Shown here piece by piece: positions 14,266 through 48,829 of a stretch of DNA of 51,236 bases (position 1 is the first letter of the stretch; each line of letters begins with the position of its first letter). This DNA is from Nitrospirota bacterium (GTDB taxonomy: Bacteria > Nitrospirota > Thermodesulfovibrionia > JACRGW01 > JBFLZU01): contig JBFLZU010000065.1 of the NCBI GenBank assembly GCA_040756155.1, positions 1 through 51,236 on the forward strand, read 5' to 3'. The notes beneath the pieces were generated by a model. It did not search any database. It was not told the DNA's origin and was given only the letters and a program-made list of their open reading frames with translations. Made by a program: the position numbers and the translations under genes.

Positions 14266-15012
14266 TCAAATAATATCCGTTGGGCTTCCGTCTGCCTTTT
14301 CCCAACTGCAGGAGAAGAAACCTTTTGAACTCAACTCGCTCAAAAGTATAAAGCATGTCTTTATATAAAGGGCATGGTCATCAACCTGCAGGAGAGTCTT
14401 TTTCAATATATCGAACCTCATTTTATTGAGGGTTATTATTAATACCACCCCTCTAATTGCTTGTACCCTGTTGATAACATCCCTGATTACCTCAGAGCCA
14501 ATATCAACAACAACAAAGTATTTCCTCTCTGTATTTGAATCCTTTATCCTGATATAAAGATCAGGGGAGATACCATCTCCATTTTCTGTGTTAGATAAAA
14601 ACCATCTGCTATCCCTTATCAGATATTTCATCTGTCGTTTCATCATATCACTCTTGACAACCCTGACAACCTCTGTAATGATGAGTTCTTTAAACATATC
14701 TTCCTGAGACACAATAGACATACGGATATTCTCAGCCGCATAGTTACAGTATACAGTGAGATATTCCACAGAGAGCCTTGTCAGATAGTAGAGAATACCA
14801 GAAGTGATGCGTGTGCGATTATATCTCTGTTTATACAGAAAACCTGCATTTACAAGTTTACTGAGTCTTTTCCTCAGATTTTCCTTATGTAAAAACTCAT
14901 TTCTGTTTTTCTTCCAGTGGTATCGGTATAACTGTTCCAATGTTGCAGGTCCTGCTGACAGGGTTTTGAATATATCTATATCCCTGTCTGTAATGCTTAC
15001 ATAACCCTTCAT
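14266..15012 (-). CDS. Replication-relaxation (Replic_Relax, PF13814-like) family protein
   Basis: N-terminal winged-helix-like ITDRDIDIFKTLSAGPATLEQLYRY ... LRKRLSKLVNAGFLYK pattern. 4-bp overlap with the coupling-protein gene. Confidence 0.55.
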   Translation of the reverse strand: MKGYVSITDRDIDIFKTLSAGPATLEQLYRYHWKKNRNEFLHKENLRKRLSKLVNAGFLYKQRYNRTRITSGILYYLTRLSVEYLTVYCNYAAENIRMSIVSQEDMFKELIITEVVRVVKSDMMKRQMKYLIRDSRWFLSNTENGDGISPDLYIRIKDSNTERKYFVVVDIGSEVIRDVINRVQAIRGVVLIITLNKMRFDILKKTLLQVDDHALYIKTCFILLSELSSKGFFSCSWEKADGSPTDII

Positions 15013-16913
15013 AATATCAATCCCGACATCCCGTCATCTTCGTAAGCAGACAAATCATACGGATCAAAGGTAGGTTTTTTCGATATACCTCTTTCATCGA
15101 TGTTCTTTTCGATGTGTTGGTAAATACCTATATCATCAATCCTGTCGCCTTTAACCATCTTGGTGTCACTATGGGTCTTTAAATATCCATTCCGTGATAA
15201 TACGGGTACCTTCAGCGGTGAAGTATCTATTCCCCATCTTTTCTTGTATTCATCAATATTCTGTGGCAGGGGCTTTATGAGACCTTTTATTAACCGTGAC
15301 TCATAATATCTCTCCAGATCAAGAATGAACGGCCTTGTATCAGGTGTAAAGCATATCGCCTTTTTCTTAGCCATATTTCTTATGCTGTCATCACTCATAA
15401 GGACATCAGGCTCCCATGCTATCTGTTTCTTATTGAGCCATGGTATTATCGGTTCGGTAAAATACCTTGTCATTAATGTCCTCTGTTTTCCAAGCATCTC
15501 AGAAACATACTTTGAGGTCTTAAGGTTTATCCCGCTGAGGTATATCTGTGTCCTTAGATTCGTCATAATAGCACCAAATCTATCCCCGTAGTTCTCAAAG
15601 AAGTCTATATTTGTGGTACTGAGGATGCACTGCGTATTTGTATCCCTCGCTATGGATATATACTCAGGCATATCAACAATATTCAAATTTTCAAATTCAT
15701 CGAGATAAAGCGCAAGGTCATTTGATCTAAAAAATATCTCACCTTTTGATGCCCTTTGCCTCTGGATGCGTTTCTCCTCAAATGCCCTTCGCATAACGAG
15801 TCTCGTCATAAGGGATGCTATCTGCATACCAACCTCTTTTTTGTCAACTGGAACACCTATGATCAAAAGTGCTGGTTCTTCTTCCCTGAAGAGAATCTCC
15901 AGAGTAAAATCGGATCTGGAGAAGGCAGCCTGAACCTGTGGTTCTTTAAATATAGAGAGTTTCTTGCGAACAGATGAGAGTATATCCATCTGCGACTCAT
16001 TAGTCCTCTTCATCCAGTCATCAAATCCAGTTATTATCTCAAGATTCCTGCAACACTGGATAAATTGATTCAGCACCTTGTGGGACCTTATCAACTGATA
16101 TGCGATAGAGAGACTGCATTCGCTGTCTTTAAACTCCTCCCTGATTAGTTTGAGCAGAGATTCGAGAAAATCGTGTGACCTTCCCTCAAAGAATTCATCT
16201 CTCTTTTGCACCCTCCTTTGATCCCCAAGAAAGGCATTTACGATTGTCTGTATCTCATCGTCTGTTGCCTCTAAAAGTGGATTGAATCCCCAGCAGTCAG
16301 GATGCCATGGATCAAAAAGGATAACCTTCTTGCCATTCTCCATCCATGCACCTGCAACTTTATTGTATAGTTCGGGAGATTTTGCATCTATAACAACTGC
16401 ACTTATATTCCCATAAGCGTCATACAGGAGCTGAGGAATTATAAGTGATGAAGTCTTTCCAATACCTGTGGGTCCAACTATCAGTGTGTGCATAAATCTC
16501 TGTTCACGGGGAAGTGATATCCTTCTGCCTCTATATCTACCGAGATGGTAAAAATTTTCCTTGTCACCTAAAAACCTTCTTAATCTTTCATACCTCTTGG
16601 AACATATGGAGATAGAACCGTATATAAAGACGCCTATAACACTGAATCCTGCTGCAACATTCATCATGCCTGCTCTGCCATAGAAATATGCAAGAATGAC
16701 AATCATAAAGGAAACCATTGCTGAAAACGAAACACGTCTCACAAGAGGGGTAACGGTTCCATAGAACCTTAAGATCTCCCTCCGTGTCGCCCATCTGCCA
16801 GTGTCTATGTTGGACTTTGTTTTTCTTGCAGTTGTATAGAGTTTATATACAGTGTAAGAGATAAGGATAAACATTATCGCCAGGATAACGGAAATATTCT
16901 TTGTCTCAAACAT
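15009..16913 (-). CDS. traD: Type IV secretion coupling protein (VirD4/TraG/TraD family ATPase)
   Basis: 634 aa. N-terminal TM helices, Walker A LIVGPTGIGKTS, Walker B-like LYLDEFENL. Confidence 0.8.
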   Translation of the reverse strand: MFETKNISVILAIMFILISYTVYKLYTTARKTKSNIDTGRWATRREILRFYGTVTPLVRRVSFSAMVSFMIVILAYFYGRAGMMNVAAGFSVIGVFIYGSISICSKRYERLRRFLGDKENFYHLGRYRGRRISLPREQRFMHTLIVGPTGIGKTSSLIIPQLLYDAYGNISAVVIDAKSPELYNKVAGAWMENGKKVILFDPWHPDCWGFNPLLEATDDEIQTIVNAFLGDQRRVQKRDEFFEGRSHDFLESLLKLIREEFKDSECSLSIAYQLIRSHKVLNQFIQCCRNLEIITGFDDWMKRTNESQMDILSSVRKKLSIFKEPQVQAAFSRSDFTLEILFREEEPALLIIGVPVDKKEVGMQIASLMTRLVMRRAFEEKRIQRQRASKGEIFFRSNDLALYLDEFENLNIVDMPEYISIARDTNTQCILSTTNIDFFENYGDRFGAIMTNLRTQIYLSGINLKTSKYVSEMLGKQRTLMTRYFTEPIIPWLNKKQIAWEPDVLMSDDSIRNMAKKKAICFTPDTRPFILDLERYYESRLIKGLIKPLPQNIDEYKKRWGIDTSPLKVPVLSRNGYLKTHSDTKMVKGDRIDDIGIYQHIEKNIDERGISKKPTFDPYDLSAYEDDGMSGLIL

Positions 16914-16914
16914 G

Positions 16915-18222
16915 TTATTTTCTCTTAAAGGTTACAAACCTCCACCTGCTTGTCATCCACATACTGAGACCGCTGATACCATACCATGTAAACCATGTAG
17001 TAAATATGGTTATGCCAAGAAAGATGAAGAGTGTAGAGACATCAGCGTGGATTGCATCTGTCTGAATCCCTGTAAACAGGGAAAATGCAGTCATGGCAGA
17101 TTCTGCAACAGTATCGGTAGTTCCCAATATTCTATCCCTTATCGTACTGGATATTGCCTCTACGATATACAATGAATTCAGCCACATCCACATCCCGAAG
17201 TATCTTACCAGGATTGAGAATCCGAATATCGTTGCGTAAAGAACAGTAAGAGGATATGATGCTGAGAGTATGACCTTGGCTGAACCAATAAAATCGTGAA
17301 GATGGTCTCTGATAAACCAGAATATCGCTGATAACATCTGAAGTAACAAAAACCTCGAAGGAAGATTTACAACTGACCCTGCAAAACCACCAACCTTTCT
17401 CCAGACGGATTCCCAGAACCCTTCATTTTCTGTTCTCCCACCTCTGAGTTTATCTTCTCTAATTTTTTCATTTAAGATCAGGGCATCAAATACTTCATCC
17501 CTCCAGCCATCACTGTTAAATCTCCTTCTGTATTCCTCTATTATTTTCTTCTGTCTTTCATTCAGAGTTAAATCTCTGATACCCTTTAACGCATGGCCCT
17601 GTAATCCTGCGTATGCATGTCTGTATGCATTACCAACCTTCTCGATGAGTATCCTTTTCTTTTCATCGCATGAGAGATCCTCACCACCCAGGATTCCTCT
17701 CTGGAAATATATAACTCCTTCTTCGCTTTCTGTCCTGTAATCCATCTTACTTGGAATTACAGTCTTACCTTTTCTTTCTCCTATAACATTCGCCTCTTTG
17801 TAACAGATGTTATAAAAATTTCTTATATCAGACCTATCATTTGAACTCAGGTTCTGATAGGTTTGCTCTATTGCAGCCATCCCGAGCTCACCCTCTTTGG
17901 CAGTAATCCATATCGCATCCACCTTGTAGTCTGGCACTGCAATCTCGCTAATCTTGAATGCGAGGGAGTTAATAAAGTCTGTGCATCTTACCCAGACGCT
18001 TGTTGTTGAAAATATCGAGAATATCAGGACAGATGTGAGAATATATTCACCCGCATACAAGTAAGGAGATTCGCTTCCTTTTATCGCAGAGAAATATTTC
18101 GTAACACCAATTAACACAACTATTACAAAGAGAAGCAGTGTCACAGGTGGAATAAATATAGAATCCTTTACTGATTTCAACATCTCAAGCATCATCACAT
18201 CATAGGGATATTCCTTAAACAT
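16915..18222 (-). CDS. traG: Polytopic membrane protein, F-type TraG N-terminal-domain-like
   Basis: 435 aa. Two N-terminal TM segments, a ~220-aa loop, then a cluster of C-terminal TM segments. Sits between the traH-like and T4CP genes, as traG does in F-like operons. The call rests on topology and position only. Confidence 0.4.
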   Translation of the reverse strand: MFKEYPYDVMMLEMLKSVKDSIFIPPVTLLLFVIVVLIGVTKYFSAIKGSESPYLYAGEYILTSVLIFSIFSTTSVWVRCTDFINSLAFKISEIAVPDYKVDAIWITAKEGELGMAAIEQTYQNLSSNDRSDIRNFYNICYKEANVIGERKGKTVIPSKMDYRTESEEGVIYFQRGILGGEDLSCDEKKRILIEKVGNAYRHAYAGLQGHALKGIRDLTLNERQKKIIEEYRRRFNSDGWRDEVFDALILNEKIREDKLRGGRTENEGFWESVWRKVGGFAGSVVNLPSRFLLLQMLSAIFWFIRDHLHDFIGSAKVILSASYPLTVLYATIFGFSILVRYFGMWMWLNSLYIVEAISSTIRDRILGTTDTVAESAMTAFSLFTGIQTDAIHADVSTLFIFLGITIFTTWFTWYGISGLSMWMTSRWRFVTFKRK

Positions 18223-18225: not shown

Positions 18226-19464
18226 TCATCTCCTTTTGATATCCCTGGATTTAAAAAGTATCCCTCCAATCTGTTCATCAGATAGAACAGGAAGTCTTAC
18301 ATCAGGATTGTATTTTATGAGCCTTTCAAAGAGTGGAGCTATAAGTTCTTTCTGAATCTTTGCCTTCTCTATAAGAAAGTTATACTGGTTCAGAAGCCTT
18401 TTTCTTTTTCTCTCGAGTTCAGCAATCTCACCTTTGCTGAGTCTCGGGTTCGACTCTTCTGCTTCAAGTATATTGTGAACTTCTATAATCTTATACTGTA
18501 GTTTGATTATTGACTGGATAGTGGATATATGGTCTATCACCACCGTCCTCGTAGCCGAATCCATCATATGAAGTGTCTTGAGTATCTCGATGGTCACCTG
18601 CCATTCAGGTGTGGATACCTTCTTTATGTCATCAATCGAAATATTCTCACCCTTCAGGTATCTGTCCATAAGGGAGTTCAAGTTTTTCGCATAGTCCTCT
18701 TTTAAATCCGCATGGAGGTTTTCAACCGCATTCATACCAATCTTTGTTGCCCCCGCTCTTCCAGCACCACTATACCTCATATCTCCAATCAGCAACTTTG
18801 CGATATTCTCTGTAGCAGGAGATGCTCCGGCATGCTTGAGGGCTTTATCAATCAGATCGATCTCACCTTCTGTGAATCCTCCCCATGGATCTTTAATGTT
18901 TTTTTCACTCCTGCATTTATCCATAGCTAAATTGAGGTCCATACCCGTAGACACTTTCTGATTTATACATTCATAAAGACCTTTGTGCTGAAGCATCATA
19001 CCGATATTCATTGCACCCTCTTCCAACTGAGCACACTGGGCATTTCTCAGCGTCAACATCATATTTGTCATCGCCTTGAAATGTTTGTATGCATCGCAGA
19101 GTTGTTGCGAAGCATAGCACATAAGGACAAGAGGTGCTGCAGCAATAGCGGTTCCTGCCAGTCCTTTTGCAAAACTTTCTAAAGCCTCCTGATTGAACAT
19201 AGCCTTTATATTTCCTGCAAGGTCAAGGGCACTGCAGCCTCTTCTCTCAGCATCAAGTTGAAATCGAAGCATATCTCCTCCTGACGACTTATTTGGAAAT
19301 GCCCTGATACCACCGCTGTAAGAAAAACTTTTATCACTCCTTGAATAATCATTGTAGGTCTCAAATGCCTTATCCCTTGAGTCTTCAAACAGGTCTCCAG
19401 AGACTGAGGATACATAACTTATTGAAAGGAGAAAACCTATTATATGAGCAATCAGTTTACGCAT
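18226..19464 (-). CDS. traH: F-type TraH-like periplasmic protein
   Basis: 412 aa with a signal peptide. RGCSALDLAGN..F..L..A.. resembles the TraH GCGGIDLF region. Position is upstream of the traG-like gene. Confidence 0.5.
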   Translation of the reverse strand: MRKLIAHIIGFLLSISYVSSVSGDLFEDSRDKAFETYNDYSRSDKSFSYSGGIRAFPNKSSGGDMLRFQLDAERRGCSALDLAGNIKAMFNQEALESFAKGLAGTAIAAAPLVLMCYASQQLCDAYKHFKAMTNMMLTLRNAQCAQLEEGAMNIGMMLQHKGLYECINQKVSTGMDLNLAMDKCRSEKNIKDPWGGFTEGEIDLIDKALKHAGASPATENIAKLLIGDMRYSGAGRAGATKIGMNAVENLHADLKEDYAKNLNSLMDRYLKGENISIDDIKKVSTPEWQVTIEILKTLHMMDSATRTVVIDHISTIQSIIKLQYKIIEVHNILEAEESNPRLSKGEIAELERKRKRLLNQYNFLIEKAKIQKELIAPLFERLIKYNPDVRLPVLSDEQIGGILFKSRDIKRR

Positions 19465-19487: not shown

Positions 19488-19904
19488 TTACTTCTCTGAA
19501 TTAGTTTGTTTAACAACATCCTCTTGAACTGCAATCTGGTTTAAGACTTCCTGTGCTGCATTTATCTTTCTGAGTTTCTCTTTGTTCCACTCAAGATACC
19601 TCTTTGCATTCTCTTCTGTAGGATCCTCAAGGAAATCAAGGACTATTTTTGGAGGTACATAGTATCTTATGGAGCCATCAGGAGATATAACAGGTTCAAT
19701 CCAGAGGCTCTCCTTTTGAGACTTGAGATTTGAGATTTGAGATTTCATATTTGAGGATGGTGCTGGTGCTTTCTTAGTTTCTTCCTTGCACTCAGAAAAA
19801 AAGACAATCTTTTTACAGTCAAAGAAGGATACCCCTCTATCTTCTGCAAAAATGGAACTCGGGTATAACAGCAATATTAAGGTTATAAGTATTTTTCTGT
19901 TCAC
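19488..19904 (-). CDS. Secreted 138-aa protein, tentatively TraF N-terminal-region-like
   Basis: Signal peptide MNRKILITLILLLYPSSIFA. DPTEENAKRYLEWNKEKLRK resembles the helical N-terminal part of TraF-type proteins. Contains the heptamer tract. Confidence 0.3.
   Translation of the reverse strand: MNRKILITLILLLYPSSIFAEDRGVSFFDCKKIVFFSECKEETKKAPAPSSNMKSQISNLKSQKESLWIEPVISPDGSIRYYVPPKIVLDFLEDPTEENAKRYLEWNKEKLRKINAAQEVLNQIAVQEDVVKQTNSEK
19716..19757. repeat. Six consecutive 7-bp units (TTGAGAC, TTGAGAT x3, TTCATAT, TTGAGGA) inside a CDS
   Basis: Read directly from the sequence. Encodes ..NMKSQISNLKSQKE.. on the minus strand. Confidence 0.9.
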
Positions 19905-19965: not shown

Positions 19966-20711
19966 TTATTTCTTTTCTAAGTCCTGGTAAATACTACTAA
20001 ATTGATCAAGAGCAGATTCAAGATTTTCAGCAATATCTCTCGCAAGCAAGTCCGGATCTGGAAGGTTTTCAGAATCTTCGAGGCTTTCATCCTTCAGCCA
20101 GAAAATATCAAAACTTACCTTATCCCGTTGGATCAATTCGTTATAAGTGAATGCTCTGAATCGTTCCGTCTCTTTTCTGTTAAAGCGGTTATCCTGGTTA
20201 TAGCATCTGATAAAATCCTGGAGGTCTTCGTATCGCAATGGGTTCGTCTTGAGAGTAAAGTGCTTGTTTGTTCTTAAATCGTATATCCAGAGTATTCTTC
20301 TGCAAAAGCCCTTCGTATATCTCTCCCTTTACATCAATATCTATCCCTACCCATGTCTCATCATTAATGAGCATTATCAATCTCTTGAGTTTTGCAGGGT
20401 CTTGAATCTTATTCTGCGACTTTCTGGAAGATAACCCCAAGCATGCCCTTTTCTTTACCGAGAGACTCAAGGATATGTCTGTAATGGACTTCGAGGACAT
20501 CCCCATCTTTTTCAAGAAGGCTCTGCCAGTCAAGACCCTTCGGGATTGTTGGGGGTTTGTTAAAGGGCGGCCTCGTCTGCTCATCGGCCATCTTGAGGAA
20601 CAAGAGATATGTGAGCTGTTCCACATAGTCGCCATAGCTTACCCCGTCATCACGGAGGACATTGCAGTAATTCCAGAGTCTTTGAACTATTGTTGAAGAT
20701 TCATTAGGCAT
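19966..20711 (-). pseudogene. hsdM: hsdM (type I R-M methyltransferase) pseudogene: frameshift plus loss of the catalytic core
   Basis: Frame 1 gives the HsdM N-terminus (MPNESSTIVQRLWNYCNVLRDDGVSYGDYVEQLTYLLFLKMADE..). A 1-nt shift lies near 20411-20430 (..IFQK / QNKIQDPAKLKRLI..). After YEGLLQKN (~20295) the frame jumps to WIYDLRTNKHFTLKTNPLRYEDLQDF.., the HsdM C-terminal tail. The AdoMet/NPPF core is absent. Confidence 0.75.
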
Positions 20712-21066
20712 GATGTCCTCTACCAGTTTTGATCGTAGCGTAAATTGCTCTAATGTCGGATATGATTTTATCTATTGAAGGCTCTTTACAGGGGATATGT
20801 CCTGAGGGATTTTCATATGGATGATAGTGCCATTCCTTCAAATTATCATATCCGAAGATTCTTTGATCATTCTGTATCAATGCAAAATCCATGCGCTCGT
20901 TTCTTGCATTATATCGCACTGCAAGGAAAAGGTTTTCACCAAAATGGATATTACATTTAAGAGATCTGTGGGTTCTTAAAAGGAATTCGATCTTATACTC
21001 TACGAAATGTTTTTTGAGAGAAGTTGTTATTTCTGAAAGGAAGGCATCAACATTAAGGCTCTTCAT
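20704..21066 (-). CDS. Small protein, tentatively DUF6516/TumE-like toxin family
   Basis: 120 aa. FGYDNLKEWHYHPYENPSGHIP His-rich pattern. 4-bp overlap with the upstream 108-aa ORF. Confidence 0.3.
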   Translation of the reverse strand: MKSLNVDAFLSEITTSLKKHFVEYKIEFLLRTHRSLKCNIHFGENLFLAVRYNARNERMDFALIQNDQRIFGYDNLKEWHYHPYENPSGHIPCKEPSIDKIISDIRAIYATIKTGRGHHA

Positions 21067-21389
21067 TTTTTCTTAAAGCCTTTAAGTTTTGCCAGTGCTG
21101 ATAATAACTCCCTTTTCTCCATCTCTAACATTTCCCAATCTATAAAATCTCCTTCTACCTCATGACCGTGCCTATTCTCAATCTTATCTTCATCCCACAT
21201 CTTTTCGAATTCCTTAAAAGAGACACCATATTTCTCTTCAAATCTCAGTATCTCACGGGTATAGTGCTCTATCCTGTTCTCTATTGCAGAGAGAAGAATA
21301 TCATCTATTTTTTCCTTCAGCGCATTTTCACCAAAGGATTCTACGAGGGCATTGTATATATCTTTGTCTATTTCCAATATATTAGGCAT
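21063..21389 (-). CDS. Small acidic helical protein, possible antitoxin-type partner
   Basis: 108 aa. RFEEKYGVSFKEFEKMWDE pattern, seen in small antitoxin-like proteins. Translationally coupled to 20704-21066. Confidence 0.3.
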   Translation of the reverse strand: MPNILEIDKDIYNALVESFGENALKEKIDDILLSAIENRIEHYTREILRFEEKYGVSFKEFEKMWDEDKIENRHGHEVEGDFIDWEMLEMEKRELLSALAKLKGFKKK

Positions 21390-21453
21390 GGTAACCTCCT
21401 TTTATCTTTTCATATTATAGCAGAAGTTTTATTCCCCCTTATATTTTTCTTTC

Positions 21454-21525
21454 GTAAGGGCGAATGGCCGTTCGCCCTTACATCCGTTTGTCCTGCCATT
21501 TCAATGGGCGTATTGCCATACGCCC
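21454..21525. repeat. Two REP-like GC-rich hairpins downstream of the RAYT remnant
   Basis: GTAAGGGCGAA-TGGCCG-TTCGCCCTTAC (21454-21481, 11-bp stem). GGGCGTA-TTGCCA-TACGCCC (21506-21525, 7-bp stem). Confidence 0.8.
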
Positions 21526-21530
21526 TTAGA

Positions 21531-21827
21531 TTATTTCTTTCTGTTCGGATTCTCCTCATCTTCATCCCATTTCAAGGGATTATATCTGATGTATTCACGG
21601 ATAGAATTTAATTCATTTTCATTGCGAATTATGTGTTCGTAATAATTGCGTTGCCAGAGTATAGCCGACCGTTCCACATTATTTTGATTTATCCATTTTA
21701 AATATTCGGTTGAAACCATTGATTTAAATACACCAACGATATTTCCTAATGTAGGGGCAGGGCTTGCCCCTGCCCTTTTATTTGTTATTTCATTATTTTG
21801 GGCAACCGCAAGGGTTGCCCCTACATT
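21531..21827 (-). pseudogene. 3' remnant of an IS200-like / REP-associated tyrosine transposase (RAYT-type) gene
   Basis: Open frame ..NVGATLAVAQNNEITNKRAGASPAPTLGNIVGVFKSMVSTEYLKWINQ..LWQRNYYEHIIRNENELNSIREYIRYNPLKWDEDE. This is the C-terminal YEHIIRNE..IREYI.NNP..W signature only; the N-terminal HUH/Tyr domain is absent. The frame starts at the hsdR' stop. Confidence 0.6.
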
Positions 21828-21828
21828 T

Positions 21829-25202: not shown

Positions 25203-25229
25203 TTTTGACTGAACCAAAAAGAAAAATAG

Positions 25230-28184: not shown

Positions 28185-28253
28185 TATACGAGGTGTGAAT
28201 ATGAAATTTGCAAACATAAAAGAACTTCAAAGGGAAGGCAGAGTCGTCCATAT

Positions 28254-41582: not shown

Positions 41583-42155
41583 TTAATATTCCTCATTGAA
41601 GATGAACCTTACGGTCTTAAGATTTCCTGTGCCTTCAATTATTACCCTTCCCGTAGATGGGCTGGATTCTTTATCTATGGCTTTATCTATTTCATTTGCA
41701 ATGTCTGATGGAACATTGGTCACATATATATTGTGGTCATAGGCATTCCCATTGCCATTGAGGTCTACACTCCTCTTATAGGATATATAGCCATTTGCAA
41801 TCCCCGTGGCAGGGTTGTTACTGATCAGTTTTCCTCCGCCTTTTATATACGGACCTCTCCAGTAATCTCTAACATCAACGCCCATAAGGGTATTCTGAGC
41901 AGCGTCCTTATCCCATAGAGCCTTTATATCATCTTCAGATGTATAGGTTCCTGTATCCATCTTGAACCGCTCTTCTGCCGCTGCATACTGCTCAGCCTTC
42001 GTGATAAGAGCAGCCGAATTTGCTCTGTTTGTGTTCATTAGAGTAATTATCGTTCCTGCAAGAATAGCGATGATTACTATCACAAAGATCAATTCAATCA
42101 GTGTAAAACCTCTTTTATCCTTAATCTTCAATCCCGAATCCTTACTTATAAACAT
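41583..42155 (-). CDS. Major prepilin with long (16-residue) leader, type IVb-like
   Basis: MFISKDSGLKIKDKRG|FTLIELIFVIVIIAILAG. 190 aa. Confidence 0.8.
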   Translation of the reverse strand: MFISKDSGLKIKDKRGFTLIELIFVIVIIAILAGTIITLMNTNRANSAALITKAEQYAAAEERFKMDTGTYTSEDDIKALWDKDAAQNTLMGVDVRDYWRGPYIKGGGKLISNNPATGIANGYISYKRSVDLNGNGNAYDHNIYVTNVPSDIANEIDKAIDKESSPSTGRVIIEGTGNLKTVRFIFNEEY

Positions 42156-42161: not shown

Positions 42162-42713
42162 TTACCTCCTTTCTTTTTCCTTCACATAGAGCTTAAAATC
42201 GAATATTAGTTTTCCTTCTTTTGCCTCCATTCTGTCTACTGAGACAGGAAATATCTCTTCGATAAGCTCGAGAAATCTTGCAAGTTCTGAAAGTGTATTG
42301 TATGCAACCTCAAACTGCAATGGAATGAAAGTTCCAATACCATCCCTTCTTGCCATATCAGTTATTTTTATACTTGATACTTTTTGATTTTTTGGTGAGG
42401 CCTTGAGTCTGTAAATCGACGATAATTTTTTTACACCATACTGAAAAGCAGAATAACTGTTTTCGCTTCCAAACAGAACTACGGGTTTAACAGGAAGTTG
42501 CCTGACCTTATCACTAAGGTTTCTATACTCCGAGATTTGGTATCTTAGAAGACTTGATTCTTCTCTGAGTTTGTACTTGCTGTTTATCAGATTACTTATA
42601 ACCAGCAATTGACCTATCAGCAATACTGTAAATAGCATCGTCCATGCGATGAGTCTTTGTCGAAAACTTAATCTTAAGGGAATTGCTTGTCCCTTCCCAG
42701 AAGGCATTCGCAT
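42162..42713 (-). CDS. Bitopic GspM/PilO-like assembly protein
   Basis: 183 aa. Basic N-terminus, then a single TM (IAWTMLFTVLLIGQLLVI) and a periplasmic domain. The track ORF overlaps the upstream gene by 122 nt, so the true start is uncertain. Confidence 0.4.
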   Translation of the reverse strand: MRMPSGKGQAIPLRLSFRQRLIAWTMLFTVLLIGQLLVISNLINSKYKLREESSLLRYQISEYRNLSDKVRQLPVKPVVLFGSENSYSAFQYGVKKLSSIYRLKASPKNQKVSSIKITDMARRDGIGTFIPLQFEVAYNTLSELARFLELIEEIFPVSVDRMEAKEGKLIFDFKLYVKEKERR

Positions 42714-43614
42714 TCTTTACCTCCCTTTTTACTACCTTAAAGGCACCTATGAAATCAGCAGAATCCTTAAACCTCATAATAACTTCAAGGTTATTCCTTT
42801 TGCCAACAACCTCTATCGAGTCATATTTACAAGTCTTTAAAAACTCAATGGTCTTTAACACATCTTTAAAAGATACACCCTGCTTTTTAATAATATAACC
42901 ACCTCTTTCAGCTATCAGTCTCTCGAGTTTGTTCTCTTCTGAATAAATATCGCTATGGAGGTTCAATTCAGCAGACCTCAAATTCGAGATGGATATAAGA
43001 AGGCTCAAAAGCACAAGGAAAGAAATGGCATTTCCAGCAATGCCAGCAGAAATTATCCTTTTTATCCTTCTCTTTTTCTCTATATAAGGATTCCTATAAA
43101 AATATTCCTTCCCAGCCCTTTTTATTGAATCCGAAAATTGCTCAAACGGTATATTATATCCGTATATATGCGTCTCTGGTATTTTACCCAGCCTCAGATA
43201 TGAAACAGTATTTTCGATCTCACCCTCGATTGAATCTCCCACATTTACCATGTATCTCGTGATATCTATTGCACCTTCTGAGTTTACATAGCTGATGAGC
43301 AGTATCTCGATGTCCTTAAACCATACACCAGTAAGCGTAGATGGCTCTCTCTTAAAAAATATCAATGGATTCGTTATAAAACACTCTTTCTGTCTTACTT
43401 CCTCAAACATCTCACTTGACTTTTCAGAATAAACAAGATCACCAATCTCGATAGATATATCTTTGTAGATATTTCTCGTGCAGGATGTATCCCCGGAGAA
43501 ATAAAGAACAGTCGCTCTCTCAGGGATATCTCCTACACTTTCTGCATCTTTTCCATCAAACATGATAATCGTCTTAGGTTCTTCATTAATTACAAGATAC
43601 ATCTCACTATTCAC
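42592..43614 (-). CDS. GspL / PilM-PilN-like assembly protein (cytoplasmic domain, one TM, periplasmic domain)
   Basis: 340 aa. Central TM AGIAGNAISFLVLLSLLISI. The call rests on architecture and position only. Confidence 0.4.
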   Translation of the reverse strand: MNSEMYLVINEEPKTIIMFDGKDAESVGDIPERATVLYFSGDTSCTRNIYKDISIEIGDLVYSEKSSEMFEEVRQKECFITNPLIFFKREPSTLTGVWFKDIEILLISYVNSEGAIDITRYMVNVGDSIEGEIENTVSYLRLGKIPETHIYGYNIPFEQFSDSIKRAGKEYFYRNPYIEKKRRIKRIISAGIAGNAISFLVLLSLLISISNLRSAELNLHSDIYSEENKLERLIAERGGYIIKKQGVSFKDVLKTIEFLKTCKYDSIEVVGKRNNLEVIMRFKDSADFIGAFKVVKREVKNANAFWEGTSNSLKIKFSTKTHRMDDAIYSIADRSIAGYK

Positions 43615-43634: not shown

Positions 43635-44438
43635 TTATGGCATCGTTGATGGCACAGGAGAAATACTGCCCTTCTCTATTGGAAATGGAAATGGCTGTAC
43701 CCTCTGGGGATGCCTCTGGTATGTACCGTCTGGTGCATACCTCTGCTCAGGACTTGAAGTACGCATAGATGCAGAGGGAAGTATCATCCTTTCCATTCCA
43801 TCCTTCTCGACAAGGACATAATCATAAGTAATCCTCTTTATTTTATATGTCCCTATCTGAGCACCATCTATAATGTTATACCTTCTTCTACCATATACCG
43901 CTATGGCAGTCATCCGCTTCCCTGTATTTATGATGCCAGATACCTCAAGGACAGGCTCTTTATCTTCTTCTTTCATTTCAAAGCCAGGAAGGGCGATAGA
44001 GCCTTGAATCTTGATCAGACTGCTTTCAAGTGTTCCTTTTTTGACCTTTGCCTCTACCTCAGTTAGTTCACCCTCTCTTTTCTTTTTCTTTATCTCGGTC
44101 ATTATAGCTTCGAGTTTTGCTTCATCCTCCGCCTTAGATATCCTTTCCTTTCTTTCTTGTTTTTCTATATCTTCCTTCCTGAAGATGTCGTATACCTTGG
44201 TCACAGGTATTTTTACTGTTGTCTGTGGTGCCTCCTCTTTCCTTTCAGGGATTGATGGCTGTTTTGGTTCAGCCTTTACAGGAAAACCCTTATCGCTTTT
44301 TGTAAAAAGAGGCGGTCTTTCAGGGACGCTCTTCATCTGGGAATTTATGTAGATTATAGTTGCAAGCGATGAAACTCCTATAATACCAAGAAAAACAAAA
44401 GCATATTTTTTGTATTTTTTAATGTCTATCTTTAGCAT
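43635..44438 (-). CDS. PilP/GspC-like bitopic protein
   Basis: 267 aa. N-terminal TM, Lys/Glu-rich linker, and a C-terminal beta-rich segment (VSGIINTGKRMTAIAVYGRRRYNIIDGAQIGTYKIKRITYDYVLVEKDG). Confidence 0.4.
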   Translation of the reverse strand: MLKIDIKKYKKYAFVFLGIIGVSSLATIIYINSQMKSVPERPPLFTKSDKGFPVKAEPKQPSIPERKEEAPQTTVKIPVTKVYDIFRKEDIEKQERKERISKAEDEAKLEAIMTEIKKKKREGELTEVEAKVKKGTLESSLIKIQGSIALPGFEMKEEDKEPVLEVSGIINTGKRMTAIAVYGRRRYNIIDGAQIGTYKIKRITYDYVLVEKDGMERMILPSASMRTSSPEQRYAPDGTYQRHPQRVQPFPFPIEKGSISPVPSTMP

Positions 44439-44534: not shown

Positions 44535-45287
44535 TTAATATTCCTGAACCGCATATACCCATTCCCTTTCACCCCATGGAGTATCAAAGCCAATCCTGCA
44601 GTTATACGGTGGAACAGGACTTAAAGATGAAGAGAAATTATCAAAGAAATACGATGTATTCCATCCTGTCTTCCTGCAGTTAATCTTAAGAACAGTGCAA
44701 ACATTTGTGTCTTCAAGGGTTGCAAATGCTGTGCAATTAAACTCTCCAGCACCATTACATGTGTTCTTCTTAAAATAGTTTTTTGTAAAATCATGATATG
44801 GGTCTGCTAAATACTTTGCCTTATGATACTGTTCAAGTTTAAATGCAATATCCTCTGCATATCTCCTCGTCTGCTCATAGAGTTCCTTCTGTATCTTAAA
44901 GCCATCAACCACCAGAACATAATCCTGAGAAGTTGATATCTCCCCTGTTGATTGGTTAACTGTGGTTTTATCATCCTCCAGAAGTATCAACACAAAATTA
45001 TGATAATAAATACCTGTCCTGTTAAGCCTTCCGGTCGAAGCAGTCCTTACCCTGTACTTCTTTGACGGCACTACAGGAAGGCTCACAACCCCTTCCTGAC
45101 TGTCAATCTCTCTTGCGTTCTCTTTATAGTATTTCTCATAATATCCATTAAGACTTTTCAGATATGCCATCTTGTCTTCTTTTATAACCCTAGGTTCATA
45201 AAGTAGAGCGAATATCAATGCGCCACCTGCTACAGAAAACAAGATATAAACCAAGATTATAAGGATAGAACCATTCTCACTTCTCAT
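44535..45287 (-). CDS. Pilin-like protein lacking Phe+1/Glu+5 (GspK/minor-pilin-like), paralog-like to 37920-38852
   Basis: MRSENG|SILIILVYILFSVAGG. C-terminal FDTPWGEREWVYAVQEY parallels TTTPWGETIVKTVFGVY of the 310-aa pilin-like protein. Confidence 0.45.
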   Translation of the reverse strand: MRSENGSILIILVYILFSVAGGALIFALLYEPRVIKEDKMAYLKSLNGYYEKYYKENAREIDSQEGVVSLPVVPSKKYRVRTASTGRLNRTGIYYHNFVLILLEDDKTTVNQSTGEISTSQDYVLVVDGFKIQKELYEQTRRYAEDIAFKLEQYHKAKYLADPYHDFTKNYFKKNTCNGAGEFNCTAFATLEDTNVCTVLKINCRKTGWNTSYFFDNFSSSLSPVPPYNCRIGFDTPWGEREWVYAVQEY

Positions 45288-46909
45288 TTCTCATTTTTTT
45301 CACTTCTAAACGGTATCCCTTCAGTCAGTTTTGTTACCCTTAAAGCAATCACAAGTTCTGATTTTACAATGGAGTCACTATGACTCTTGAAAAGTTCTCC
45401 GAATATCGGTATCTTTGAAAGTATCGGAACACCCTGCGTTGTCCTGGAGGCGCTTTCTTTCTGAACCCCTCCAATAACTATAGTGCTTCCAGATTTAATT
45501 CTTAACTGCTGATAGGATTGCTTAAGCGTTAAAATAGGGTTTTCTGTTGTATTACTCCCAATAGTAACCTCCTTAAAAGACTCGATGTTTGAAAGTATCG
45601 GTATTAAGGTAAGACCTATGGTCTCTCCATCTTCCTCGACATGAGGTCTTACCCACAGAGACACCCCCTCCTGCGCCCTTTCAATGTTGAATGAAGTTGT
45701 AACAGGCGTTGTTCCAGTAGTTGCAGTGCTGTATGTCTGCTGGACACTGGAAACATAAGGAGTTGATTTTGTGGACATTATTGACGCTGGCATGTTATTT
45801 ATAATAAGCTGTCTTGGTTGAGCAAGAACCTTTGTTAACCCCTGCTCCTCAAGGGCTTTTAATATCGTAGAGAAATGGTTCGAATCCCTTTTGTATTCAA
45901 TCGTTATAAAAGGAGTAGTTATCTTCGTTGCACCACTCTGAGAGGCTGTAAGCCTGCCCCCTTCTATCTGAGCCAGCTTGCTCCAATCAATTCCAAATTT
46001 AAATGCATCAGAAAGTGTCACCTCTACAATCATTGCCTCTATGTAAAGCAATTGCCCCATCTCATCCTTGAATCGTTTCAGATAAGATTCAACAGATGCA
46101 ACATTTGAAGGATAATCAGTTACAATCAGGTTACCCGAAATCCAGTCAAAGACAGCCCTGCCCTCAGGAGAGATAAACATCTTAACCGTTGACTCAAATG
46201 TCTTTTTTGTATCTTCTTTGTCTTCTTTTGATACAGAAAATAGTGCCTTGATGTTTGACTGTGTGCCTCCCTGTGAACTTGTAGTACCGGATGTTCCTCC
46301 TGAAGATGATGAAATCACATCGTTTGATACATCGTATTTAACAGAACCACCACTTTGGTCAAAAACTGCAAGTGGAAGCTTAGATGTCTTTGTGAGGTAT
46401 TTTGATACGGTGATGACTTTTTCCTTACCATTGATATCCACAAAATACGATGCACTCTCTACTATTGACCTTATCGCTCTGGATACTGGAAGATTTCTTA
46501 TGTTCACATCAACAGGCTTTTGAGCATTAACACCATCGCCGTAAATTATGTTGTAATCTGATGCTATTGCTGAGAGAATATCTCTTAATGGACATGACGC
46601 ACAGTTTACATCAACCATCCTTTCTTCATAATGGCGAGATTTTTCTGAAACTTCTGTTTCGTTTAGACCGACATCACCGATCTCTGGCGACCCTCCATCC
46701 TTATCCTTTCTCTGTGTATCTATTTTTGTTACGCGTATTGGTTTTTCTTCTTTGATGATAATAGGTTTTTCTCCTGAGAATTCACGGTCTTTTACAGCCT
46801 CAGCTGAAGACTGATATGTCTCATGTGGAACTTTCTCAACTGTTGCACAGGAAGTAAATAAAAAAACAGCGATTATTAATATAATTATTTCAGTTGGTCT
46901 TAACTTCAT
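45284..46909 (-). CDS. Secretin (PilQ/GspD/R64-PilN-like), lipoprotein-type signal
   Basis: 541 aa. Lipobox LFTSC. Secretin-domain pattern VLAQPRQLIINNMPASI ... GVPILSKIPIFGELFKS. Confidence 0.85.
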   Translation of the reverse strand: MKLRPTEIIILIIAVFLFTSCATVEKVPHETYQSSAEAVKDREFSGEKPIIIKEEKPIRVTKIDTQRKDKDGGSPEIGDVGLNETEVSEKSRHYEERMVDVNCASCPLRDILSAIASDYNIIYGDGVNAQKPVDVNIRNLPVSRAIRSIVESASYFVDINGKEKVITVSKYLTKTSKLPLAVFDQSGGSVKYDVSNDVISSSSGGTSGTTSSQGGTQSNIKALFSVSKEDKEDTKKTFESTVKMFISPEGRAVFDWISGNLIVTDYPSNVASVESYLKRFKDEMGQLLYIEAMIVEVTLSDAFKFGIDWSKLAQIEGGRLTASQSGATKITTPFITIEYKRDSNHFSTILKALEEQGLTKVLAQPRQLIINNMPASIMSTKSTPYVSSVQQTYSTATTGTTPVTTSFNIERAQEGVSLWVRPHVEEDGETIGLTLIPILSNIESFKEVTIGSNTTENPILTLKQSYQQLRIKSGSTIVIGGVQKESASRTTQGVPILSKIPIFGELFKSHSDSIVKSELVIALRVTKLTEGIPFRSEKNEK

Positions 46910-46926: not shown

Positions 46927-47487
46927 CTACTCATAAATTATTATCTCCGCTCTTCTATCTCTCTCTTTATCTGCAGTATTGCTTTCTCTCGCTTCAATAT
47001 CTATAGGTGTATTTATTCCAAGAAAACGCAAATAGTTAACGATTGCCATAGCTCTTTTTGTCCTTAAATTAGTGTTTCTCTGAGCCGATCCATCAGGACT
47101 TGAGTATCCAACTGCTACAACTTTATTTTTTGAGTTTTTGAGATTATATTTATTAGCCGCATACTTAATAGTCAGCTTTGCGTAATCACTCAAAGAATAT
47201 CCAGCCTCAGGAAAAAACACTGAAACAATGGTATTCTCCTTTACAGGAACTATGCCTTTGGTTTTTGTTATATTCTCTGGATTGTTGTAAATAACTGATA
47301 TCTTTTCAACATTATCCAGCCTTGCAATCAATTTTTGTTGTGAATGCTCTATATTGTTGACCCTGAGTAAAAGATATTCGTAATAAGCCTGAAGTTCCCT
47401 GATTTTTTTATAAATATCGTCACCCCAGACCGAGTTGGCAAAACTGCTAAACAAAACCAGCATGAAAAATAGCAGGATATTCCTCAT
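46927..47487 (-). CDS. OmpA_C-like peptidoglycan-binding protein
   Basis: 186 aa with a signal peptide. VAVGYSSPDGSAQRNTNLRTKRAMAIVNYL ... RRAEIIIYE. Confidence 0.65.
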   Translation of the reverse strand: MRNILLFFMLVLFSSFANSVWGDDIYKKIRELQAYYEYLLLRVNNIEHSQQKLIARLDNVEKISVIYNNPENITKTKGIVPVKENTIVSVFFPEAGYSLSDYAKLTIKYAANKYNLKNSKNKVVAVGYSSPDGSAQRNTNLRTKRAMAIVNYLRFLGINTPIDIEARESNTADKERDRRAEIIIYE

Positions 47488-48107
47488 TTCCCATCATCCA
47501 GAAACTTAAATATCAGACCGTTTTTTGTAAAGATACCCTCGCCTTTCCTTACAGCAAGTTTTGTAATATATTTATCATTCACAGTCTCTACAATATAATC
47601 TGTGGAATCCCTTCTGATTTTGTAGGCATGGTCATTTATAATAAGGATATCACCATTTGAGAAAGCGATAATCGAGTGAGGACTGCCCTTCACCAAGTGC
47701 TTTACCGATTCGAGGGTAACAACATCTGTTTTGTCTTTTTTTGTGTATGTATTGTATGCAATCATGTGTATATCCGCCTTATCAGACACTTTAATTTCTT
47801 CGGGTTTCTTTTCCTCTTTCGAAGGAGAAGTCTTTTCAACTTCTTGAACGTGCTGGAACTTAATCTCTCCAGGGAATACAACAACAGGGGTTTCATGTGC
47901 CGGAATCATAACTCCACCTATAACCATATTGGGGAATCTCACATTCTGAACTACAGGCTCTTTCCAGACAAACGCCTTTTTATCTTTTAGAGCATTTTCA
48001 TTAATTGAATGGACCCTATGTTCTTGATCTCTGTTCTCAAAAAGATAGGGGAGGTAAGTGCATCCAGAACTAAACACCAATATCAAAGATAAAACAATAC
48101 TTCTCAT
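47484..48107 (-). CDS. Hypothetical lipoprotein (pilotin/PilL-position)
   Basis: 207 aa. Lipobox VFSSGC. 4-bp overlaps on both sides. Confidence 0.45.
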   Translation of the reverse strand: MRSIVLSLILVFSSGCTYLPYLFENRDQEHRVHSINENALKDKKAFVWKEPVVQNVRFPNMVIGGVMIPAHETPVVVFPGEIKFQHVQEVEKTSPSKEEKKPEEIKVSDKADIHMIAYNTYTKKDKTDVVTLESVKHLVKGSPHSIIAFSNGDILIINDHAYKIRRDSTDYIVETVNDKYITKLAVRKGEGIFTKNGLIFKFLDDGK

Positions 48108-48829
48108 AAGAAATACCCTCTGAGAAATTCGATTGCCTCTTTTTCTATCTGTCGTATCCTCGTTACTGTCAATCCATATACCTCTGCAACCCTATGGTAA
48201 TCAAAACTGAAACTATAGAGTAAACGCAGTATGTTCTGCGACCTCAGTGGTAATGGCTTTATTAATTCTTCTATGAAATCGCCATTTATCAATTTCAATG
48301 CCTTTTTCTCAATCTCTATTACCTCTTCAACGGTTAAGCCTTCACTCTCAGCAACCCTATCAGGAGATTCCACAACATAGCCACATATCCCCCATAGCCT
48401 GCAGACAGTTCTCCTTTGTTGTGCAGATAGTAATATCAGGGTATTGTAGTTGGCACCGTTACTCCTTATGCCAAAAGATCCAATTTTAGCCCTGAGATTC
48501 AGTCTGTCATCATCGAGACTGACACAAGCATAAATGTTGTCTTCTTTTTTTGTAATCTCTGAAAATGATTTATGCAGATACCAGTAAAAGATATCAGTAA
48601 ATTTAACTTTTCTTACCTTATATTTAAGTAACCCTCTCTTTTCCCTATAATTGATCTCGTAGCAATTTAGATTATAGTAATCTCTTGCTTTACTGAAGGC
48701 TATAAATGATTCATTCAGGAAGTCGTCCATATCCAGATACCTGGCCCTACGGGTATATAACTTAGCTATTTTCTTGACAAGCCCAATATTCTCTTTTAAG
48801 AATGTTATAATATCAGCATCATCATTCAT
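48104..48829 (-). CDS. Sigma-70-family RNA polymerase sigma factor with two region-4-like HTH segments
   Basis: Region 2-like NIGLVKKIAKLYTRRARYLDMDDFLNESFIAFSKARDYY and FTDIFYWYLHKSF. Two sigma-4-like blocks: LSAQQRRTVCRLWG..VAESEGLTVEEVIEIEKKALKLI and LPLRSQNILRLLYS..VAEVYGLTVTRIRQIEKEAIEFLR. Confidence 0.65.
   Translation of the reverse strand: MNDDADIITFLKENIGLVKKIAKLYTRRARYLDMDDFLNESFIAFSKARDYYNLNCYEINYREKRGLLKYKVRKVKFTDIFYWYLHKSFSEITKKEDNIYACVSLDDDRLNLRAKIGSFGIRSNGANYNTLILLSAQQRRTVCRLWGICGYVVESPDRVAESEGLTVEEVIEIEKKALKLINGDFIEELIKPLPLRSQNILRLLYSFSFDYHRVAEVYGLTVTRIRQIEKEAIEFLRGYFL

Follow-up and report, generated by a model that had tools for sequence, protein, structure and literature searches.

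A type IV pilus gene set contiguous with F-like conjugation genes in a chromosomal island of a Nitrospirota-labelled genome

We analysed a 51,236-bp window, the whole of contig JBFLZU010000065.1 of an NCBI metagenome-assembled genome (MAG) labelled Nitrospirota (GCA_040756155.1), in which genes for a type IV pilus stand beside genes for an F-like type IV secretion system (T4SS) and its coupling protein. A preliminary description had presented these two modules as physically contiguous and co-directional, which was borne out. The pilus set has lost a pilT-like gene, decayed cargo interrupts the conjugation (tra) genes, and linkage of the two gene sets recurs in relatives. The best explanation would seem to be that a chromosomal island combines two envelope machines with a shared evolutionary history.

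The list of open reading frames (ORFs) gives an unbroken minus-strand run at 13827–50948, in which the plus-strand ORF at 28463–29086 is the only sizeable one that is not a shadow; the described co-direction of every credible coding sequence except that one therefore holds. All eight short overlaps claimed for the array are present, each of 4 nt (48104/48107, 47484/47487, 45284/45287, 38849/38852, 34545/34548, 34195/34198, 33902/33905 and 15009/15012). Five are true ATGA junctions; those at 34545, 34195 and 33902 are TTGA or GTGA and so rely on alternative start codons.

The pilus and T4SS gene sets

In transcription order, the pilus block and the genes between it and the T4SS core are:

47484–48107, minus: predicted lipoprotein of 207 aa (lipo207), with an N-terminal signal and Cys
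46927–47487, minus: OmpA-like peptidoglycan-binding protein, weak (Pfam OmpA 1.3e-4, below cutoff; Pal/YiaD-type ~1e-4)
45284–46909, minus: secretin, probable lipoprotein (PF00263, 8e-33)
44535–45287, minus: 250-aa pilin-like protein without Glu5 (orthologue in related locus L048, 34% identity)
43635–44438, minus: 267-aa bitopic protein in a PilP/GspC-like position (by position and topology)
42592–43614, minus: 340-aa protein of GspL or fused PilM-N-like topology (cytoplasmic domain, one transmembrane segment, periplasmic domain)
42162–42713, minus: 183-aa bitopic protein, weakly PilO/GspM-like (GspM NF040576, E = 0.04)
41583–42155, minus: major prepilin with a 16-residue leader and G/FTLIE (N_methyl 5.5e-8; TIGR02532 above cutoff)
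41515–41556, minus: remnant of a deleted PilT-like ATPase gene (its first 12–14 codons, just upstream of pilB)
39884–41521, minus: PilB/GspE-class extension ATPase (T2SSE 8e-97)
38849–39877, minus: PilC/GspF platform protein (T2SSF ~6e-33, in two stretches)
37920–38852, minus: 310-aa prepilin-like protein with G/FTALE (N_methyl weak), candidate minor or tip pilin
36437–37849, minus: 470-aa secreted Cys-rich protein (signal peptide, Cys-rich C-terminal half), candidate adhesin or substrate
35582–36139, minus: lytic transglycosylase, SLT (PF01464, 1.6e-14)
34545–35345, minus: DsbC-like disulfide isomerase (Thioredoxin_2/DSBA; DsbC NF008129 2.8e-9)

The core of a type IVa/MSH-class pilus is present, with PF00263, T2SSE, T2SSF and N_methyl/TIGR02532 all passing family thresholds. 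Other marks of that class were incomplete: pilT is deleted, no prepilin peptidase (A24) was found among the window ORFs in Pfam and NCBIfam scans, and the PilM/N/O/P-type proteins are recognised by topology and position. Thus the set described as complete does include secretin, ATPase, platform and prepilin, but lacks the peptidase and pilT.

Scores placed the pilus by class. The secretin reached 176 bits with MshL (TIGR02519), 120 with PilQ, 116 with GspD and 85 with type IVb PilN (TIGR02520), all below the model cutoffs, and had no detectable Secretin_N repeats. The extension ATPase scored nearly the same with PilB (TIGR02538, 320 bits) and GspE (TIGR02533, 317 bits) and shows a weak MshE-type N-terminal motif; against the PDB it reached 203–281 bits with PilF/PilB/GspE, ~110 with PilT, 97 with BfpD, 65 with DotB and ~45 with VirB11. 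From these model and PDB scores we assign the pilus, on homology, to the type IVa/MSH/type II secretion system (T2SS)-related class and not to the type IVb class of R64, TP114, pYR4 and PAPI-1. The R64-type models PilN and BfpD were outscored by MshL and by PilB/PilF, respectively, and neither PilS nor PilL had a Pfam or NCBIfam match among the pilus-block ORFs. Being PilB/GspE- and MshL-like, the pilus is unlike the type IVb kind of R64 and PAPI-1, which the preliminary description had named as known pairings with a T4SS. As for the T2SS itself, there was neither Secretin_N nor GspC, traces of GspG, GspH and GspM were sub-threshold (the major prepilin scored 7.6e-10 as GspG-like, below cutoff), and orthologous modules elsewhere carry PilT-like genes.

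The remaining pilus-block proteins were more divergent. No Pfam or NCBIfam match was found for lipo207; in L048 and in eight loci of Omnitrophota its homologues lie directly upstream of the secretin gene. The two large pilin-like proteins, of 250 and 310 aa, are paralogues (BLASTP 30% identity, E=3e-17), and the latter also has a full-length L048 orthologue (33% identity). The 340-aa protein had no Pfam match and its single-sequence AlphaFold model was unusable (pLDDT 35.7); it is homologous to the gene immediately downstream of the secretin gene in loci L047 and L048, whose 147- and 141-aa genes weakly match the 183-aa protein (E=0.005). For the 267-aa bitopic protein we found no Pfam or NCBIfam match and for the 470-aa Cys-rich protein no family match, and neither has a homologue in the related loci. 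Family models thus bear out the sigma factor (see below), secretin, prepilin, GspE, GspF, SLT and DsbC-like assignments of the preliminary description, while its PilP, GspL and GspM labels go without family support.

In locus L003, from another MAG, the prepilin gene and pilB are separated by ~1 kb of additional DNA (702–1707) that encodes a 348-aa PilT-like T2SSE protein, in flanks 98.7–99.3% identical to the window. The window retains only MELMGFMEELQQ of this gene, and the comparison shows that a precise ~1-kb deletion removed it. The PilT-like genes of L003 and L048 suggest that the pilus was ancestrally retractile. A second PilT remnant, picked out by eye as a C-terminus at 36172–36354, was dropped; BLASTP against the L003 PilT, phmmer against the PDB and tblastn of three PilT-like proteins were all empty.

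Another PilB protein, MEW6408846.1 (P0007; 2,440-bp contig), is 87% identical to that of the window. Its accession number falls within the range of those of the window proteins; it probably belongs to the same MAG and may represent a second, diverged copy of the module.

A 236-nt gap with a promoter-like site (35459–35430, 11/12 matches) precedes the DsbC-like gene. Downstream of that gene, the T4SS genes are:

34195–34548, minus: TraA/VirB2-like pilin candidate (topology)
33902–34198, minus: TraL (Pfam TraL 1.3e-3, 19.5 against a gathering score of 24.4)
33327–33905, minus: TraE (Pfam 6.8e-6)
32606–33370, minus: TraK (NCBIfam F-type TraK 4e-4)
31447–32646, minus: TraB (TrbI 1.8e-14; NCBIfam TraB 8e-23)
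31059–31499, minus: TraV lipoprotein (Pfam 1.2e-6)
25406–27868, minus: TraC, VirB4-family ATPase, F-like (TraC_F_IV 1.7e-18; P-loop_TraG 8e-26)
24675–25250, minus: thioredoxin-like ORF with CVDC, flanking traU
23699–24694, minus: TraU (Pfam 6.3e-22, 78.8 bits; TIGR03756 6.7e-11)
23196–23843, minus: thioredoxin-like ORF with CPYS, flanking traU
19488–19904, minus: p138, matching TraF-like thioredoxin genes of related loci (group B, below)
18226–19464, minus: p412, weakly TraH-like (TIGR03755 E=0.0026; one homologue Pfam TraH 0.0027)
16915–18222, minus: 435-aa polytopic protein, weakly TraG_N-like (hhalign to an Omnitrophota TraG_N family, E=7e-4)
15009–16913, minus: type IV coupling protein (T4CP) of VirD4/TraG type (T4SS-DNA_transf 2.3e-30, TrwB_AAD_bind, TraG-D_C)
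14266–15012, minus: divergent Replic_Relax protein of 248 aa (winged helix and PD-(D/E)XK nuclease-like domain)

The order TraL-TraE-TraK-TraB-TraV is that of F; TraE, TraV and TrbI pass their Pfam gathering scores, while TraL and TraK do not. F and pED208 TraB were the only PDB matches of the TraB C-terminal domain (2e-16). TraC scored 67 bits with TraC_F_IV against a gathering score of 28, and 278 bits with F-type TIGR02746 (cutoff 567), compared with 162 for VirB4 and 83 for the genomic-island (GI)-type TIGR03744, so that by profile score it would lie nearer the F type than the VirB4, TrbE or GI types; the nearest plasmid TraC is only 22% identical. The T4CP matches VirD4/TraG/CD1115 models, whereas TraD models reach only 3e-5. 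Homologues of p412 and p138 occur in 32 and 27 related loci, respectively; the p412 family profile found nothing meaningful in the PDB, and the 435-aa protein had no direct TraG_N match in Pfam or NCBIfam. The TraA-, TraH- and TraG_N-like labels given earlier are consistent with weak matches or topology, but none has a family match above cutoff.

A 58-nt repeat (family D3, 95% identity) with an internal palindrome occurs at 23573–23630 and 24848–24905. It sits in frame in both thioredoxin-like ORFs that flank traU, giving the shared peptide KS.ISNRS.ERSRRSLKS., and may be a small mobile repeat tolerated in coding sequence.

We compared these genes with the recognised mating-pair formation (MPF) classes. 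No window ORF of at least 80 aa matched TraN, TraW or TrbC in Pfam or NCBIfam, and all NCBIfam equivalog scores of the tra genes were far below cutoff. Of the MPF-F set TraU/TraW/TrbC/TraF/TraH/TraN, the window has TraU, a weak TraH and the TraF-like p138; of TraG and a TraD-type coupling protein, it has TraG_N by hhalign only and a T4CP of VirD4/TraG type. The MPF-G models all stayed below threshold (TIGR03756 42 bits against 188, TIGR03755 17 against 270, TIGR03752 19.5 against 241, TIGR03744 83 against 521). TraU and TraH homologues are known only from MPF-F and MPF-G (PMC4027160), which would place the window T4SS in that super-group as a member of neither class. We regard it as F-like but deep-branching, a judgement made on these homologies. 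The original "F-type" label accordingly survives in part: TraC, TraU, TraE, TraV and TraB pass Pfam and TraB finds only F/pED208 structures, but the NCBIfam scores, the missing TraN, TraW and TrbC and the VirD4/TraG-like T4CP do not fit. Profile classification, proposed as a check on whether the tra genes might not be MPF-F, gave a divided answer, F-like yet failing several class-defining features.

Recurrence of the linkage in related loci

With an alignment of TraC we scanned GTDB, each species being represented by a single genome. This yielded 43 loci, in which we located homologues of window proteins by tblastn and iterated hidden Markov models (HMMs); relatives of the secretin came from a separate search. 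Candidate members of this T4SS class are MAGs labelled Nitrospirota, Omnitrophota or 'Planctomycetales', and Bdellovibrionota or Oligoflexales, apart from single loci that bear other labels.

In group A are ten loci, from Omnitrophota MAGs and MAGs labelled 'Planctomycetales', whose TraC is 29–31% identical to that of the window; the Omnitrophota loci L005–L012 are the closest relatives of the window tra genes. Gene order there runs TraG_N, Replic_Relax, T4CP, (TraA, TraL), TraE, TraK, TraB, TraV, TraC and then, after TraC, a lipo207 homologue, secretin, proteins of 394, 161 and 220 aa, PilB, PilC, three pilins and TraU. The pilus genes are thus interleaved between traC and traU, within the tra operon. 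Lipoprotein and secretin were present in all eight loci reaching beyond traC, and PilB and PilC in all three reaching further. With hhalign we found no significant match between the window and group A for the 394-, 161- and 220-aa families, the 257-aa Replic_Relax-like protein or the TraA and TraL candidates.

Group B comprises 35 loci, mostly of Bdellovibrionota and Oligoflexales, with TraC 21–24% identical to the window. Its order is TraU, a PilB-class ATPase, a TraF-like protein, then TraE, TraB, TraV, TraC and a p412 homologue. The PilB-class gene directly follows traU in 26/26 loci with both (e.g. L021 2288–4926, L046 3–3166), and its product is full-length and PilB/GspE-like (~240 bits), not VirB11-like (~52 bits). 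No secretin, PilC, lipo207 or prepilin-motif ORF was found within 10 kb in any group B locus. Several loci of L013–L046 have a much longer TraU ORF, of 660–870 aa, owing to an extra N-terminal region.

The two closest secretin relatives are in L047 and L048. L047, with a secretin 35% identical and a T4CP 36% identical over full length to those of the window, has the order TraU, VirB4-like, T4CP, SLT, ParA, secretin, 325 aa, 147 aa, PilB, PilC. L048 has an orthologous pilus module, with homologues of lipo207 and of the 340-, 250- and 310-aa proteins and two PilT-like genes, on a contig too short to show the neighbours of the module. Among secretins at 27–30% identity, L049 and L050 are in chromosomal MSH-type pilus clusters without a T4SS, and L051 is in a ParB/primase context. 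From the ordinary MSH-type pili of L049 and L050 we conclude that the pilus set was recruited from that class.

In a neighbour-joining (NJ) tree of PilB, bootstrap support was 98% for a clade of the window, L047 and L048, 77% for group A together with L051, and 73% for group B. The close relatives are T4SS-linked in three different gene orders, which makes the linkage of pilus and T4SS an evolutionary one and no accident. It had been proposed that finding the pilus block as chromosomal DNA in relatives lacking the T4SS would reduce the arrangement to adjacency; this is so for distant relatives only, the close ones being T4SS-linked.

The T4CP and Replic_Relax genes overlap by ATGA in the window. 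The Replic_Relax protein had no direct Pfam match, but its label was upheld through its homologues, of which 80 were found among 1.84 billion representatives; 32/40 matched PF13814 (best 4e-14). Conserved residues are H108, D134, P150-D151, E168, D170 and K182 (a PD...E.D...K motif). An alignment-based AlphaFold model (pLDDT 93) has a winged helix and an α/β domain, and Foldseek returned FokI (~5e-4), AF2093 (3.9e-4) and then PadR (~1e-2), with low TM-scores; the model agrees with the published PD-(D/E)XK fold assignment of Replic_Relax (PMC3424549). Replic_Relax-like genes adjoin the coupling ATPase in L001 (13263–15625), where that ATPase is FtsK/SpoIIIE-like, and in group A locus L008 (3074–6098), and are present in several group B loci. 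The protein is a candidate DNA-processing partner of the T4CP, and its recurrent adjacency to a coupling ATPase hints at a relaxase-like role.

The island and the interruptions of the array

The first 6.8 kb of the window (1–6.8 kb) encode housekeeping functions: a cNMP-binding protein, inositol monophosphatase, M48 peptidase, YdjM, a radical-SAM enzyme and alanine dehydrogenase. A second MAG (GCA_964502495.1, locus L052) aligns with 1924–7071 at 97% identity, has different DNA at 7071–11460 and matches again from within a methylase gene. We place the start of the island near 7.07 kb because that match breaks at 7071; the second MAG has the same left junction. It adjoins a variable stretch of restriction-modification (R-M) genes:

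7072–13631, plus: two type II R-M systems (XcyI-like endonuclease and methylase; MjaI endonuclease and N6_N4 methylase-SNase fusion)

A 471-aa protein without assignment is also encoded within 7072–13631 (plus strand). The replacement of 7071–11460 in the sister MAG suggests a variable defence islet at the island edge.

With T4SS and T4CP present and the island abutting housekeeping genes, we looked for the other marks of an integrative and conjugative element (ICE); an integrase, MOB relaxase, tRNA and terminal repeat were not found in the window, nor were Rfam features that could mark an attachment site. Integrases are carried by L001 and L002, two relatives that came from the protein database, the latter also with a MOB relaxase, so that at least some members of this T4SS lineage are ICEs. 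A circular plasmid was considered and rejected, as the contig ends have no terminal overlap and the left end is chromosomal; no near-identical DNA was found among PLSDB plasmids. The window TraC-like protein is MEW6409759.1.

Besides its core genes, the array contains:

48104–48829, minus: sigma-70-family factor, at the level of the extracytoplasmic function (ECF) superfamily (Sigma70_r4 1.5e-8; TIGR02937 47.7 bits against a cutoff of 42.9)
28001–31058: insert or cargo block of ~3 kb between traV and traC
30606–30983: DUF5618 gene (Pfam DUF5618 7e-37), in the insert
29110–30495: 461-aa membrane protein (no Pfam match), in the insert
28463–29086, plus: lipoprotein (no Pfam match), in the insert
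19966–22905, minus: decayed cargo in the tra array, as follows
21829–22905, minus: truncated hsdR (ResIII 3.8e-38 on a 358-aa ORF)
21748–21827, inverted repeat I7: REP-like GC-rich palindromes adjoining the RAYT fragment
21531–21719, minus: RAYT-type transposase fragment (by sequence)
20704–21389, minus: toxin-antitoxin (TA)-like pair (by sequence)
19966–20711, minus: hsdM in three fragments in different frames (HsdM_N 9.7e-12 on a 100-aa ORF)

The sigma gene overlaps the next gene by ATGA. Its product has two tandem region-4-like helix-turn-helix segments, RpoS-type at residues 129–181 and FliA-type at 184–237; Pfam detected no region 2, and no related locus has a homologue. While the array does include this sigma gene, it is not headed by it as had been described, but continues upstream to at least 50948. 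The minus-strand genes at 48901–50948, upstream of sigma, encode a DUF3102 protein with a long coiled coil, a small ribbon-helix-helix (RHH)-like protein and a YkuD L,D-transpeptidase and are probably further element genes; a perfect -35/-10 consensus (50293–50265) precedes the RHH-like gene.

The insert between traV and traC, which includes ~0.5 kb of non-coding DNA, is absent from all related loci. The layout was described as a few long operons; co-direction and overlaps fit this, but the run is broken by decayed R-M genes, the RAYT fragment, the TA-like genes and the 3-kb insert. Intergenic gaps of 236–1241 nt with promoter-like sites also occur within the array. Scans for consensus promoters and terminators were near shuffled expectation and add little.

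Two DUF5618 paralogues, at 13827–14201 and 30606–30983 (75–80% nucleotide identity), are direct repeats separated by 16.8 kb that flank the entire T4CP-to-TraC segment. Recombination between them would delete the T4SS core.

Interpretation and comparison with known systems

The reading we favour, and consider probable, is an ICE-type transfer module, partly decayed, whose deep-branching F-like T4SS is assisted in mating-pair formation by a recruited pilus of MSH/type IVa-like kind. One machine would comprise the VirB2/TraA-like pilin, TraL/E/K/B/V, TraC, TraU, the TraH- and TraG_N-like proteins, the thioredoxin-fold helpers, the VirD4-type T4CP and the Replic_Relax protein. The other would be a PilB/MshL-class pilus of lipoprotein, secretin, alignment proteins, major pilin, two large pilin-like proteins, PilB and PilC, ancestrally with a PilT-like retraction ATPase as well. 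The pilus may reach and pull in recipient cells, or stabilise mating pairs. DNA would be processed by the Replic_Relax protein or an unseen relaxase, delivered by the T4CP and passed by the F-like T4SS, and the operons are probably turned on by the sigma factor that the element itself encodes. The data show the gene content and order, the homologies, the recurring linkage, the loss of pilT and the decayed cargo within the array; this division of labour, the regulation by sigma and transfer activity are what we infer. The R64 thin pilus and the PAPI-1 pilus act likewise in pilus-assisted conjugation (PMC9045228, PMC5297154, PMC4027160). The window copy may have lost self-transmissibility as it partly decayed.

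Several observations weigh against such a module. The pilT-like gene is deleted and a prepilin peptidase is missing, the PilP-, GspL- and GspM-like labels rest on topology and position, and pseudogenes and the 3-kb insert break the tra array. Scans of the window found no integrase, recognised MOB-family relaxase, oriT or terminal repeat. The right end of the contig falls inside the island, so that the window holds no right-hand boundary, and GC content does not clearly separate the island (0.39–0.42) from its flank (0.43). A single clade of all T4SS-linked PilB proteins had only 25% NJ bootstrap, and the relatives are all MAG or metagenome contigs.

The main alternative is a single chimeric machine, with the pilus-type parts serving as structural T4SS components and not as a separate accessory pilus: PilB could stand in for the VirB11-like third ATPase that is missing, and the secretin could provide an outer-membrane conduit or a port for the pilus. 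We think this unlikely, though it deserves attention for what the relatives show, namely group A pilus genes inside the tra operon and, in group B, a PilB/GspE-like ATPase that invariably abuts traU with no PilC, secretin, lipoprotein or prepilin nearby. The lack of F-specific TraN, TraW and TrbC in the window would also fit, as would the rarity of VirB11 outside MPF-T (PMC4027160). The broadest form of the idea, that a PilB-class ATPase is integral to the F-like conjugation machine across a wide, previously unrecognised T4SS class, a true T4SS–T4P (type IV pilus) chimera, is to us a doubtful one; equally doubtful is its extension to secretin, lipoprotein, PilC and pilins as integral in some branches, with PilB in the VirB11 role and Replic_Relax as relaxase. 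In the window, by contrast, the two sets are separate blocks with the 236-nt gap and promoter-like site between them. The window also keeps TraK, TraB and TraV, which make up their own outer-membrane core complex, together with a VirB2-like pilin candidate. A set with pilins and PilT ancestry meets the needs of a free-standing retractile pilus.

The two machines might instead act in succession, the T4SS exporting DNA to the medium and the pilus taking it up as a competence pilus, in transformation-based exchange. The F-like T4SS of the Neisseria gonococcal genetic island exports DNA in this way; the window pairs an F-like T4SS and T4CP with no recognised relaxase, and type IVa-like retractile ancestry is that of the pilus class used for DNA uptake. 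However, ComEA, ComEC and DprA-type genes were not found in the scanned island ORFs, an adhesin-like role would better suit the large pilin-like proteins and the secreted Cys-rich protein, and pilT is deleted in this copy. We consider the idea improbable. We hold a T2SS-like system exporting the 470-aa Cys-rich protein or other cargo to be quite improbable too. The GspG match as best family of the major pilin, the equal GspE and PilB scores, the GspM-like trace, the lack of a retraction ATPase in the window copy and the encoding of a secreted protein within the block all speak for it, but the orthologous modules of L003 and L048 encode PilT-like ATPases, which T2SSs lack. Moreover, the secretin is MshL-like without detectable Secretin_N repeats, the GspC and GspH–K families were not detected in the window, and it is the 250- and 310-aa pilin-like proteins that are conserved, not the 470-aa protein. 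Mere adjacency of a pilus cluster and a conjugation module in a recombination-prone island seems very improbable. In its favour, R-M systems, pseudogenes and repeats make the island a mosaic, and the more distant relatives of the secretin belong to chromosomal pili with no T4SS; even so, the linkage recurs in three gene orders and several phyla, and the lipoprotein-secretin pair is common only to loci that are T4SS-linked or in a mobile context.

On the favoured reading of a recruited mating pilus, the pairing is a real and apparently undescribed variant of pilus-assisted conjugation, which to our knowledge has been described solely in Proteobacteria, where I-type and GI-type T4SSs are paired with type IVb pili. 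The principle would extend to a PilB/MshL-like, ancestrally retractile pilus class, to a very deep F-like T4SS lineage and to uncultured phyla in which routes of gene flow are essentially unknown. Perhaps the most important result is comparative: PilB abutting traU in dozens of Bdellovibrionota-type loci, and complete pilus sets inside Omnitrophota tra operons. These define a testable family that could reveal how F-like systems without VirB11 energise pilus dynamics, or whether a T4SS can incorporate parts of a T4P. Experiments are conceivable, since cultivable members of the Bdellovibrionota exist. Replic_Relax proteins are flagged as recurrent partners of coupling ATPases and candidate unconventional relaxases.

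The arrangement had been said to fit no described family, and our full-text literature searches likewise found no description of this pilus-T4SS architecture. Two 2026 Omnitrophota preprints go no further than to report pilus and secretion genes on mobile elements.

The IncI1/IncI2 plasmids (R64, TP114) resemble the window in having a second pilus beside the T4SS, there an MPF-I system with the thin type IVb pilus pilI–pilV. Shared parts are a lipoprotein, lipoprotein secretin, ATPase, platform, pilins with a large adhesin-type minor pilin, and a lytic transglycosylase; the plasmid pilus serves mating in liquid or gut (PMC9045228; PMC4027160). By contrast, the window T4SS is F-like and not I-type, and its pilus is of PilB/MshL and not PilQ/PilN/BfpD class, ancestrally retractile with a PilT-like ATPase, and has no shufflon or prepilin peptidase.

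ICEs of the PAPI-1/pKLC102/ICEHin1056 family combine an MPF-G T4SS with the type IVb pilus pilL–pilV, which in PAPI-1-type elements is needed for transfer (PMC5297154; PMC4027160). Like them, the window module is chromosomally integrated and has TraU-, TraH- and TraG_N-like proteins, and its TraU scores slightly better on GI-type TIGR03756 than on the F TraU equivalog. However, its TraC favours the F type over the GI type (278 against 83 bits), its TraB matches F TraB, no TIGR037xx ICE family reaches cutoff in the window, and the pilus class differs.

Chromosomal MSHA-type pili (MshL, MshE, MshG) share with the window pilus a secretin that scores best on MshL and an ATPase with a weak MshE-type motif. 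The window differs from them in having no MshM- or MshN-like genes, other accessory proteins, scores below the equivalog cutoffs, and an island that includes a T4SS.

Finally, the MPF-F systems of F and pED208 share the TraL-E-K-B-V-C order, TraU, a DsbC/thioredoxin helper and a lytic transglycosylase. The window departs from them in the ~22% identity of its TraC to plasmid TraC and its equivalog scores far below cutoff, and our scans found no TraN, TraW, TrbC, TraD-type T4CP or MOB-F or MOB-H relaxase. It differs also in that the conserved gene neighbourhood of its lineage includes a PilB-class ATPase and genes of a type IV pilus.

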